DNA from: Enterobacteria phage CUS-3 | DNA: 40,207 bases | Direction: 5' to 3' (one strand) | Sequence record: CP000711 | Shown here: in pieces, positions 33,001 to 39,000 of the stretch | Layout of the letters: the number at the start of each line of letters is the position of its first letter | Numbering within the stretch: position 1 is the stretch's first letter | Made by a program: the position numbers

Positions 33001-36000
33001 ATTCGTTTTGGTTGGACGTGAAGGGAGACTCAATGACGGCTCCGGCCGGTCTCAGTATCCCTGAAGGAATGATAATACTCGTCGATCCTGAAGTAGAGCC
33101 GCGTAACGGGAAACTGGTAGTTGCAAAGCTCGAAGGAGAAAACGAGGCAACTTTCAAGAAGTTAGTTATTGATGCAGGCAGGAAGTTTCTAAAACCACTT
33201 AACCCACAATATCCGATGATCGAGATCAACGGAAACTGCAAAATCATCGGCGTAGTTGTCGATGCAAAACTAGCAAACCTTCCATAAGGGGGCATTCGCC
33301 CCTTTTTTTTTATTTCCTTTAAAAATCAAAGCTAAACTTAAGTTACGAAAGAAAATTTAAGTTTTCTTCAAAAATACTCTTGACCATTAATTAAAGAGAT
33401 CTTAAATTTAAGCCATCAGCAGGACGCTGGAAGCCAAACGGAAAAGATTGGCAGGCTCTTTAACATTGATGGGATTGTCCCGCCGAAATGCGGGAACCAA
33501 AGAGTAGTTGGCTTTGGGGTGACGTGAAGTGCAGCTGCACGACGGCAACCGGAAGATAAGCACCCGGCGCGTCACCGCCAAAGTCAATTCCATAGGCGTT
33601 ATGCAGCCGCCACCATATTCAAGAAAGCTGCACAAGAGGTAGGAGGATTTATGTGAATACTTACATTCAATTGAGAGATTAATTAAATAGAACTGATCGA
33701 GCAGAGTCCATAAAGGCTCATAAATGCTCTTCCATCCCCGTCTAATTGGCGGGGAAGGAAACCACTTTGTAATAAAAAAATTCCAAAGTTGTTTCATCGG
33801 AGGTCAACATGACAGTAGTCATTACATATCTGGCTGACGATAACGCCAGAAATCGCCGCAGAGCACGCAGACAGGCTCAACGTGAACAGGCAATGCAAGA
33901 ACAGCGACTGGCGCGAAAGATTGCGCTAAAGCTCTCTGGTTGCGTCAGAGCAGACAAAGCAGCATCACTCGGAAGCCTTCGCTGCAAGAAGGCAGAAGAA
34001 GTCGAGAGTAAACAGAATCGTATTTACTACCGCAAGCCACGCAGTGAAATGGGGGTGACTTGTGTTGGTCGCCAGAAAATGAAATTAGGAAGCAAACCAC
34101 TTATTTGAGGTGATATATGGAAGAAGAATTTGAAGAGTTCGAAGAGCATCCGCAGGATGTGATGGAACAATACCAGGACTATCCTTATGACTACGACTAT
34201 TGATAAGAATCAATGGTGTGGACAATTCAAGCGATGCAATGGATGCAAGCTGCAATCGGAATGTATGGTTAAGCCTGAAGAAATGTTTCCTGTAATGGAA
34301 GATGGGAAATATGTCGATAAATGGGCAATACGAACGACGGCAATGATTGCCAGAGAACTTAGTAAACAGAATAACAAGGCTGCCTGATGGTGGCCTTTAT
34401 TTTTGTCCGTAAATAATTTCATGCTTATTACAATCAAGGTGATATATGGAAGAACAAGCAAACAAGATTCTCGTAGAACTTCTGCAAAAAGCCAGTAATG
34501 GAATAGACGCGGCTGTTTCATTTAGCCAGGCACAGATTCCTGATGTTGTTCGTCAGTTGCTAACATGGAGTTTTGTCCATAGCGCACTTTTCCAAGTGGC
34601 TGGGTTGTTGCTTTTAATTGCAGCAATGAAACTTCCTAGTTTTGCAAGAACGGCAAGAAATAATGGCGAGAGATGGACGTCTTTAGATGGATGTCCAAAC
34701 GATAGATATTTTATATCTTCGTTTTATTACGATATATGCACTGTATTTGCTCCTATATTTGGCTCAATTATTGGCGTTTTAATTATTGCCTTCAATTTCG
34801 AATGGTTGAAGATTTGGCTTGCACCTAAGTTATTCCTAATTGAATATGCAGCATCATTGGTTAAGTAATTTCAGGCCGCATAGTCGGCCTTTATTTTTGG
34901 CATAAACAACAGAATAAACACTGCACTGTGTATTCATTCCAACGAGTGAATACACGGAGCAATGTCGCTCGTAACTAAACAGGAGCCGACTTGTTCTGAT
35001 TGTTGGAAATCTTCTTTGCCCTCCAGTGTGAGGGCAATTTTTTTTGATGGAGGATATATGAGTGAAGTAACAGATTTAGTTGTTATTGAAAAAGCAAATG
35101 CAATGACTGTATTTCAGTCTGCCGACCAGATTGAAGAAATTCTCCAAAAGGTTGAACGTGAAGTTATGTCATTTGTGCCTGATATCACAACGGCAAAGGG
35201 CAGAAAGGAGATCGCTTCTCTGGCGTATAAAGTTGCGCAGACGAAAACATATCTCGATGGTCTTGGCAAAGACCTTGTTGCTGAACTGAAGGAAATTCCA
35301 AAGCTAATTGATGCCAACCGCAAGACAGTGCGCGATCGCCTTGATGAACTGAAAGCCAAGGCGCGCCAGCCTCTTACTGATTATGAGGAAGAATCAGGCG
35401 CGGATTAAAGCCGAAGAAGAAGCTAAGGCAGCAGCTGAAGCTCTCGCAAAGCAAATTGAGTCTGACCATGAAATAGCGATTTTGATGGATCGCGAATTTG
35501 ACCGCCAAAGAGAAGAGGCAAGACTCAAAGCGGAGCAGGAAAAGCGAGAGCATGAAGAACGATTAAAAAGAGAAGCTGAAGAGAAAGCCAGAGCAGAAGC
35601 CGAAGCAAAGGCAAAAGCCGAAATTGAAGCAGCAGCAAGGCGAGAAGCAGAAGCTAAGGCCGCAGCGGAACGTGCAGAGCGTGAACGCATTGAAGCCGAG
35701 CAACGAGCACAGCGCGAAGCAAAAGAGGCAGCAGAACGAGCTGAAAGAGAAAAGCAGGCAGCAATTGAAGCAGAACGCAGAAAAGCACAGGAGGAGGCTG
35801 AACGAATCCGTCGCGAGGCTGAAGCAAAAGAGCAAGCCAGAATAGCAGAAGAAAAAAGAATCAAGGACGAAGAAGAGCGTAGAGCAAAGGATAAAGCTCA
35901 CCGGAAAGAAGTAAATAACAAAATACTTGCTGACCTTATCAAGGTTGGCGCATCAGAAGATGTTGCTAAAAATATCATAACAGCCATCGTAAAAGGCGAA

Positions 36001-39000
36001 GTATTCGCAACAAAAATAACCTACTAATAAAACCAACATAAGGAACCACCCATGATTTACGCAATCGCGGGAGGCGCTCGCATGGGTGCCTTCCAACTAA
36101 ATGAATCTTTACTTGAACGAATCACCCGTAAATTACGTGACGGATGGAAAAGAGTTGAGGTCTTATTATGCGCAATGAAATAGCCATCAATCACCAGATG
36201 CTTCGTGCTGCACAGAACAAAGCAGTAATAGCCAGATTTATTGGTGATTCCAAAATGTGGCTTGAAGCAAATAAAGCGATGAAATCAGCTATCAACCTTC
36301 CGTGGTATCGCAGGAAATGAGTTTTACAGATAACTGGTCAGACGAAGAATTCATTCGTCAGATTAAAGAATTAATCGGTAACGAAGGAGATATTCATGTC
36401 ACTTGCAACCACAGTGAAGGAGAGCAAGTTACAGAGACGCATGTACACGCAGAAAGCTCTCTGGTATCGCCATAATGGTGACCGCGAAGGAATGCGGGTA
36501 TGCCTTAATTTGTCCCGAGTCGAAGTATTAAATCAGCGTTATTTCCTTGGGCCGTGTCCATTCTGAGAGCAATCATATGAGCAAAGAATTTTACGCAAGA
36601 CTGGCAGCTATTCAGGAGAATCTGAACGCGCCAAAGAATCAGTACAACTCATTCGGCAAATATAAATACAGAAGCTGCGAAGATATTCTTGAAGGCGTTA
36701 AGCCGTTACTGAACGGTCTGTTTTTATCAATCAGCGATGAAGTTGTGTTGATTGGTGATCGGTATTACGTGAAAGCCACGGCAACTATTACCGATGGCGA
36801 AAACAGTCATACGGCAACCGCTCTTGCACGAGAGGAAGAAAGCAAGAAAGGAATGGATTCTGCACAAGTTACGGGAGCTACAAGCTCTTATGCACGCAAG
36901 TATTGCCTCAATGGTTTGTTCGGCATTGATGATGCGAAAGATGCAGATACAGACGAGCATAAACATCAGCAGAACGCAGCAGCAAAGCAATCAAAACCAT
37001 CACTTACACCTGAACAGGTTCTAAAAGCATTCACTGACGCAGCAATGCAGAAAAACACCGTAGAAGAGCTTAAACAGGCGTTCGCCAAAGCGTGGAAGAT
37101 GCTCGAAGGGACGCCGGAGCAGCACAAAGCGCAGGACGTTTACAACATCAGACGAGACGAATTAGAAGGGGCAACTGCTTAATGGCACATTCGATTACAG
37201 TAAGACTAAACAAACCCGCAAGAGAGTTTCAGGGCGGGGAAAATATCGGATTCAACATCCGTGCTGGCGTTCAGTATTACGATCGCCAGACAAAAAAGAA
37301 AGAATGGACAAACTACAGCGCCGTTGTATTTGCCAAGCCGGGAGCGCAAGCGGATTACTATCGTAGCGTTCTGGTTGAAGGAGGCATTGTAGAAATTACC
37401 GGAGAAAACATCAGGGTTGATGTTTATCAGGGGCAAAATGGTCAATCAATCACTCTTGAATTACTGAATGCAAAGATTGGATTTGCAACTTCAGGAAACA
37501 GCCAACAGCAGCAAAGTAGCAATCATCAAAATAATCCTGAATACGACGATTCCATCCCATTCTGATTTAGAAAAATAAGGATTTAATTATGCCAGCGCCT
37601 TTGTATGGTGCGGATGACCCGCGCCGCTGTTCCGGCAATTCCGTATCGGAGGTGCTGGATAAATTCAGAAAAAACTACGATCGAATAATGTCTCTACCGC
37701 AGGAAACGAAAGAGGAAAAGGAATTTCGCCACTGTATATGGCTTGCAGAGAAAGAAGAACGCGAGCGAATTTACCAGACATCAATCCGACCATTCCGCAA
37801 AGCCACATATACCCACTTCCCTGAATATATCGACCCGCGCCTGCGTAATTACCGCTCACGCTATGGCGCTATCAGTAATGACTGAGGAATTTACCATGAG
37901 AGGACTTGCTTAAGAGAAAGAGTTTCGGTTCTGTTAATGACAACAAATATCTGAATGCGATGTGGCGGAGTGGGAAGAAATGAAACAAATGTCACTAATT
38001 GAGATGGATGGTTTTCTGAAAGGTAAATGCATCCCAAGTGATTTAAAGGTTAACGAAACAAACGCTGAATACCTTGTCCGTAAGTTCGGTGAACTTGAAT
38101 CAAAACTGGAAACGGCGTTGCGGGAGTGTAGTTCTGCTGGAATCACGATTGATAACCTTGAGGCTAAATGCGCGAAGATGGCTGCTGAAAATACCTCACT
38201 TAAGCAATCTGAGAAGGAATTTAATGACTTTTGTCGTGAGGAGTTTAGCGAATGGGAAGATGATGTTACTGAAACCCCAGCCACCGATGCTTTTCTGGCT
38301 GAAGTGCGGGCGCAGGGGGTGGATGCTGCTATAGAAGCTGCAAAAAATCTGGTGGCCCAAGAATATGAGTATAAGGATTTCAAAGCGGCGCAGAGTGATT
38401 GCTGTATGCACCCTGGTTCAGACCTGGTAGGGAAGGTTGAAATGACTGAGTGGTTAGTTGACTTTGCTGCCCAGCTTCGCAAAGGAGGCAACCAGTGACT
38501 GTATGTCTTATTGATAAACGTCGACGTGGGCAACAAATACCATCTGTTGAAATGCCGAATCACACATGGTTTTGCGTACTTGATATCGATGGTATGGATA
38601 CGTTGGTTGACACTCGTCATTACTGCGATACCGCAACAGCTACTCCGGCGAAAGCAAAGAAAATGGCTGCTCTGATAGAAAACTGGACTCCACCTGATGG
38701 TTGGTGCAATGGGAATGATCGAGATTGGCACGAAAAAATGAAGGGCTATATCTGCGATTTTTTACGTAAATGCAACGGCTTCAGGGGGATGTGATATGAC
38801 CAAAATTAACTATCAGGCACTGCGTGAGGCGGCAGAACGTGCAATTCCGGCAATGGAACGCCTGTTAATGTTGCCAGTTGATGATGATTTGTTAAGTGAA
38901 CAGGAACTTAAGGATTACGGTGTGGATATTGATGCGCTCAACGCCTTCAAATTTCTGACCGGACCAGAAACCGTGCTGGCGCTGCTGGATGAACGGGAAA

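Follow-up and report, generated by a model that had tools for sequence, protein, structure and literature searches.

A frameshifted member of the phi80 Agt/Mog family in the early-left operon of phage CUS-3

Two overlapping reading frames and an extra base

The genome of Enterobacteria phage CUS-3 (sequence record CP000711), whose 40,207 nucleotides (nt) are called the window throughout, carries at 35058..36027 a pair of overlapping open reading frames (ORFs), ORF1 and ORF2, which together correspond to one gene of related phages, such as gene 33 of Sf6 and agt (mog) of phi80 (Table 1). An earlier note, made from the sequence alone, had left three options for this pair: one protein made by frameshifting, a recent frameshift mutation, or two translationally coupled genes. 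The geometry described in that note agrees with the ORF list, where the two frames overlap by 26 nt (35383..35408), with ORF2 shifted by +1 with respect to ORF1. Downstream of a stop in the ORF2 frame at 35350..35352, both stay open from 35353 to 35408. As called mechanically, the first frame runs from 34962 to 35408, and its internal ATG at 35058, shared with Sf6 gene 33, HK544_037 and HF4s_0036, is the functional start. The ATG of ORF2, found 23 nt upstream of the ORF1 stop, is fortuitous (the native frame reads ...TAT GAG...) and was rightly said to lack a ribosome-binding site (RBS): no Shine-Dalgarno (SD)-like motif is present in the 20 nt upstream of 35383, and the next in-frame starts of ORF2, at 35482 and 35485, likewise have none.

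Table 1. Features at and around the split gene, in window coordinates (aa, amino acids).
Feature	Position	Strand	Remarks
Terminator-like hairpin	35016..35045	+	TTGCCCTC-cagtgt-GAGGGCAA then a T8 run; directly 5′ of the gene
Shine-Dalgarno sequence GGAGG	35049..35053	+	4 nt 5′ of ATG 35058
Whole pseudogene	35058..36027	+	970 nt versus 969 nt when intact; Sf6 gene 33 / phi80 agt(mog) / D3 orf53 family
ORF1, 116 aa	35058..35408	+	native residues 1-112 (conserved N-domain), aberrant tail SGAD, stop TAA at 35406..35408
ORF2 as mechanically called, 214 aa	35383..36027	+	native codons 113-322, read from 35395 onward
Inserted T	35394	+	GAA GAA [T] CAG GCG, after codon 112; alignment (ins1@337)
ER/K-type helix region (predicted), residues 114-285	35398..35913	+	E 27%, A 26%, R 16%, K 11%; length-variable
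Conserved C-terminal domain, about 37-40 aa, and stop	35914..36027	+	HRKEVNNKILADLIKVGASEDVAKNIITAIVKGEVFATKITY; ends ...I.Y
Spurious antisense ORF, 156 aa	35394..35864	-	T-poor sense strand
Spurious antisense ORF, 112 aa	35563..35901	-	T-poor sense strand

A single nucleotide, the T at position 35394, is the sole length difference between this locus and those of Sf6, HK544, HF4s and phiv205-1 in the alignment, and its removal gives an ORF of 969 nt and 322 aa that is collinear with Sf6 gp33. A megablast search of 35000..36060 against phage genomes returned 34 near-full-length matches of 98-99% identity. The intact 969-nt ORF is present in 65 fetched loci, and Sf6 gene 33, HK544_037 and HF4s_0036 are each annotated as a single coding sequence of that length. 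Nor is the gene split in the more distant homologs from phi80, D3, Klebsiella phage Mulock, Vibrio phage BT-1011, Acinetobacter phage TCUAN1 and Edwardsiella phage GF-2, each of which is a single ORF. The earlier note had called for an alignment with orthologs and had allowed that these might consist of two genes with the same overlap; once run, the alignment gave the opposite, orthologs being consistently one ORF.

Very probably, then, the region is a single gene inactivated by the one-base insertion T35394, which would be a prophage mutation inherited in ExPEC strains of the K1/ST95 type and neither a sequencing error nor a recoding signal. It is an ordinary lineage-specific frameshift pseudogene, and already known as such, the RefSeq entry UTI89_RS13095 being annotated as a pseudogene and 'frameshifted'. 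The gene would be a delayed-early member of the early-left (PL) operon of a CUS-3-type, P22-like prophage. Its translation would start at ATG 35058, proceed through 112 native residues, shift frame and add the residues SGAD before stopping at TAA 35406, whereas the remaining 210 codons, for a predicted ER/K helix and the C-terminal domain, would be cut off in the +1 frame, with nothing but a chance ATG devoid of RBS ahead of them. The intact 322-aa protein is an ortholog of phi80 Agt/Mog, annotated as an antitoxin or modifier of the RecBCD inhibitor GamL, and is probably a partner of the phage recombination/anti-RecBCD module.

Distribution and inheritance of the insertion

The gene is present in 537 records of complete E. 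coli genomes. A 91-nt probe centred on T35394 matched 514 complete-genome records, among which 38 carry the exact T allele and 476 lack the split; in a sample of 60 rows of probe matches, all other full-coverage rows span 90 nt instead of 91. The 38 T-allele records show 100% identity across all 970 nt and include UTI89, NU14, IHE3034, UM146, PMV-1, APEC O18, BEN2908 and clinical K1-type isolates, independently sequenced strains among them. These strains belong to the sequence type 95 (ST95) complex. Of the IMG/VR contigs, 3 carry the T allele, and 82 follow the wild-type pattern. One of the three T-allele contigs differs from the window by 7 single-nucleotide polymorphisms (SNPs), and the allele must therefore be inherited rather than an artefact. 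With a single T at 35394 set against intact orthologs, and with only 38 of 514 E. coli records carrying that T, the option of a recent frameshift mutation is the one of the three that holds. In practice, T35394 cleanly marks the lineage of the CUS-3-type prophage in K1/ST95 strains.

The same distribution gives a negligible probability to the view that the extra T was wrongly introduced when the source genome was sequenced or assembled. Single-base indels are the commonest assembly error, but T35394 recurs in 38 complete-genome records that come from many strains and were produced in many laboratories with many technologies, as well as in the IMG/VR contigs, one of them with a different SNP background, and it does not lie in a homopolymer. 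Flanked by A and C, the inserted base is outside any homopolymer or repeat, and thus at a site that is neither slippage-prone nor phase-variable. Phase variation was rejected on this ground, the site being unlike the variable number tandem repeat (VNTR) of neuO in the same window. That repeat deserves a remark of its own: positions 2235..2367 of the minus strand hold 19 perfect tandem copies of AAGACTC, which constitute the poly-psi VNTR of neuO, at the 5′ end of this gene for the polysialic acid O-acetyltransferase. Since neuO is 'on' solely at copy numbers divisible by three (PMC3046976), and 19 is not, the gene is in phase 'off' in this sequence. The repeat also marks the window as a P22-like prophage of the CUS-3 type from K1/ST95 E. 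coli.

Another explanation to be weighed is that the split is functional and that programmed +1 ribosomal frameshifting fuses the two ORFs in a prfB-like way, for instance at GAT TAA A (35403..35409). As in the E. coli genes with prfB-type +1 frameshifting, the ORFs lie in the 0 and +1 frames and a stop codon closes the overlap, and skipping of T35406 at that stop would lead into the frame of ORF2 and yield a 322-aa product with only 4 residues unlike the wild type. However, the site has none of the other attributes of the prfB type, namely a conserved slippery codon, an SD stimulator and a split conserved in orthologs. The split is a derived state, found in 38 of the 514 E. coli records and absent from every phage ortholog, with no conserved recoding site. 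According to codon-anticodon rules, the tRNA-Asp on GAU cannot re-pair on AUU, and GAA GAA TCA GGC GCG GAT TAA offers no option for +1 re-pairing, the inserted base being outside a slippery run. Neither a strong SD-like stimulator upstream of GAT TAA A nor a stimulatory fold was found, the RNA of 35380..35470 folding no better than its shuffles (z = +0.67). One protein made by frameshifting, as the earlier note had first suggested, is therefore extremely improbable, given an unconserved split with neither a +1 slippery motif nor a stimulatory fold.

Protein architecture, selection and independent losses

An alignment covering seven host genera divides the intact protein into three parts: a conserved N-domain, a charged helix of variable length and a conserved C-terminal block. 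The N-domain is characterized by the motif VPD.TT.KGR..IAS.A.KV...KT.LD..GK.L...K.....D..R...R..LD.....R.PLT.WE., whereas the C-terminal domain is conserved in the homologs of phi80, D3, Klebsiella, Vibrio, Acinetobacter and Edwardsiella phages. Between them, residues 114-285 of the window copy are 80% E/A/R/K, with hydrophobic residues at 17 of 172 positions, and contain 59 opposite-charge pairs at spacing i,i+4 as compared to 22-30 at other offsets. AlphaFold2 (AF2; mean predicted local distance difference test score, pLDDT, of 81) models one uninterrupted helix over residues 46-295, with 10-residue block means of pLDDT of 88-95 over residues 81-210. Because of the i,i+4 opposite-charge pattern and the near absence of a hydrophobic seam, residues 114-285 look like an ER/K single alpha-helix (SAH) and not like a heptad coiled coil, as far as composition and model can tell. 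The Ala/Glu/Lys coiled coil of the earlier note has thus to be amended: the helix rich in Ala, Glu, Lys and Arg stands, but the coiled coil probably does not, for want of that seam. The N-domain and the small C-domain would be kept apart by this long, stiff helix. In the AF2 model, the frameshift falls in the middle of the helix and parts one domain from the other, and a break at residue 112 should therefore abolish function.

The composition of the same region also bears on the two long antisense ORFs (Table 1). They do exist, but the DNA repeat to which they had been attributed is hardly there: Tandem Repeats Finder (TRF) detected only weak repetition, in the form of a period-6 array (63% matches, score 43) and a 2-copy 15-mer. 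It is instead the make-up of the sense strand that explains them, since 35400..35900 is only 9% T and contains 7 TTA/CTA/TCA triplets in 501 nt, or 14 per kb as compared to 43 per kb window-wide.

Among intact alleles, 58 distinct sequences give a ratio of non-synonymous to synonymous polymorphism (pN/pS) of 0.135 (N-domain 0.066, helix 0.18, C-domain 0.19), which indicates that the intact 322-aa ORF is kept by purifying selection across the junction. In-frame variants of helix length are common, with proteins of 245, 275-309 and 333 aa, a 66-nt in-frame deletion within the helix of HK633, and one variant in which 77 residues are deleted between two AKAAAE repeats; the N- and C-domains are retained in all of them. 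Such variants probably come from recombination between short DNA repeats.

Independent lesions of the gene are found in other lineages. Phage phiv205-1 carries Q30* (TAA), and ten IMG/VR contigs share Q20* (TAG), some of them with a secondary lesion, either a 14-nt or a 1-nt deletion, which points to progressive decay. A 1-nt deletion at nt 897 occurs in another locus (L027), and one further product is truncated to 97 aa (P0016). It is conceivable, though unlikely, that this repeated loss in E. coli prophages reflects selection in lysogens against a factor modulating recombination or RecBCD and not neutral decay, or that the 116-aa fragment of ST95 strains is partly active. Other genes of the same early-left operon are truncated in the RefSeq annotation of UTI89, namely a gene of the DUF2737 family without its N-terminus (window ~37900..37983; L008 5843..5926) and an ead/Ea22-like gene without its C-terminus (window ~38853 onward; L008 6796..6970). 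The frameshifted gene is therefore not the sole decayed gene of this prophage arm.

These losses also weigh on the third option, that the two ORFs are separately translated and useful proteins, the N-domain acting alone and the helix plus C-domain being produced by termination-reinitiation at ATG 35383. The overlap geometry could permit some reinitiation, ORF2 is intact in 38 of 38 copies, and the N-domain fragment is complete to residue 112. Against this, there is no SD at ATG 35383 or at the other in-frame starts up to 35485, and no homolog examined, in seven host genera or among 125 distant representatives, has its N- and C-domains on separate chains, despite a length variation of 245 to 429 aa. 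Moreover, other lineages destroy the gene outright (Q20*, Q30*, the 14-nt deletion, the 1-nt deletions), which speaks for a dispensable gene rather than a subfunctionalised one. With an ORF2 start devoid of SD and an arrangement that is absent from relatives, two translationally coupled genes are a highly unlikely reading of the locus.

Some observations temper the preferred reading of a single gene inactivated by T35394. The ORF2 half shows no additional decay in 38 identical copies, which fits a recent mutation but would also fit a retained function, and the sequence may be compatible with a little reinitiation at ATG 35383 or with an occasional +1 shift. On the functional side, the role of Agt/Mog is known from a GenBank note, and that of an 'antitoxin for Gam' may not transfer to CUS-3, because this prophage has erf and an anti-RecBCD protein but no gamL.

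Genomic context and relation to known systems

The gene is immediately preceded by a terminator-like hairpin (Table 1), at the position annotated in Sf6 as 'terminator; homology to phage lambda; tL2A'. Downstream of it, the RefSeq annotation of UTI89 lists cIII, kil, erf, an SSB-like gene and an anti-RecBCD gene, and gamL was not found in the RefSeq annotation of this prophage. Farther upstream, at 33408..33797 of the minus strand, a 129-aa ORF runs antisense to the cI-N intergenic/PL region; RefSeq lists it as the hypothetical protein UTI89_RS28850, a doubtful gene call because of its position over the PL promoter region.

A member of the family lies beside or near a single-strand-annealing/anti-RecBCD module in 7 of 7 phages examined. 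Besides that of UTI89, the order is agt-gamL-recT-exo in phi80, orf53-erf-exo in D3, gene-GamL-bet-exo in Mulock, rec-ssb-gene in Vibrio BT-1011, gene-bet in Acinetobacter TCUAN1 and gene-cIII-...-erf-ssb in Edwardsiella GF-2. From this neighbourhood we infer that the protein may be an accessory of the recombination/anti-RecBCD module. The layout of the family, as modelled, would be an N-domain, a single ER/K helix of roughly 25 nm and a C-domain, travelling with recombination modules in gamma-proteobacterial phages.

The family is large. A phmmer search with the 116-aa N-domain retrieved 4,881 representatives (50% clustering) at E <= 1e-3 and 3,303 at E <= 1e-10, in which the N-domain almost always occupies residues ~1-113 of proteins whose median length is 338 aa. 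Searches of Pfam, NCBIfam, PADLOC and PDB sequences gave nothing meaningful, whether run with either half, with the intact protein or with the family profile. Foldseek with the AF2 model returned only the family itself from BFVD, the 116-aa fragment included, and nothing below E = 1 from the PDB. A remote link to DUF1351 or to Gp157-type proteins, an idea suggested by the recombination modules of Gram-positive phages, was dropped, as 125 family members compared with Pfam hit no consistent family; the best match, Baculo_PEP_C in 4 of the 125, is a coiled-coil artefact. A 2025 Genome Research survey of lambdoid Rec modules makes no mention of this gene. As a large family with no curated model and a consistent tie to recombination modules, Agt/Mog would repay experimental work.

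The broken allele has left its own trace in the databases. PHROGs phrog_17211 (116 aa) and phrog_21365 (214 aa) are its two halves, and the 116-aa viral entry A5VWA2 of BFVD/UniProt is 100% identical to ORF1. Evidently, each half had been submitted as a protein in its own right and gave rise to a family of its own; in practice, both should be read as fragments. The name given to the gene by PGAP, 'cell envelope biogenesis protein TolA', is equally misleading. In its composition, the central helix recalls the Ala/Glu/Lys-rich domain II of TolA, the cell envelope integrity protein, but AF2 predicts a soluble helical N-terminus and no membrane anchor. A TolA identity was rejected, as the TIGR02794 model (tolA_full) gives 9.2 bits (E = 0.62) where the cut-off is 59.45, and no TolA domain of Pfam is present. 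With a score so far below the cut-off, 'TolA' is a compositional misnomer.

Among phage genes, gene 33 of Sf6 is a close relative, with 98.5% DNA identity and the same neighbours (gene 34, the tL2A terminator, cIII, kil and erf). Orf53 of Pseudomonas phage D3 shares 52% identity in the N-domain, and PHROG phrog_1376, of function unknown, matches over the full length (E = 2e-110). All three are intact single ORFs, unlike the copy split at codon 112 described here. A comparison for function is offered by Agt/Mog of phi80 (PHI80_40, AFV29176.1), also of 322 aa. Identity is 51% across the whole length (E = 1e-64), the layout of N-domain, ER/K helix and C-terminal domain is shared, and the phi80 gene is located as well in the PL operon, upstream of recombination genes. 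The two differ in that the phi80 gene directly precedes gamL-recT-exo whereas the CUS-3 gene precedes cIII-kil-erf-(ssb-like)-anti-RecBCD, and in that the latter is frameshifted. GenBank notes describe Agt as 'anti-toxin for Gam; Mog (modifier of Gam)', and call gamL, its neighbour, 'toxic without Mog', so that the neutralisation of GamL toxicity is a role assigned by annotation. The name agt/mog reportedly originates in the phi80 genome paper of Rotman et al. 2012.

Finally, the central region invites comparison with the ER/K SAH spacers of myosin VI/X and caldesmon, with which it shares a content of about 80% E/A/R/K, an i,i+4 charge periodicity, a helix predicted as uninterrupted and a tolerance of length variants. 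It departs from them in being Ala-rich, as is TolA domain II, and its monomeric state is a prediction. The likeness lies in a possible mode of working, that of a spacer holding two domains apart, and not in a common descent.

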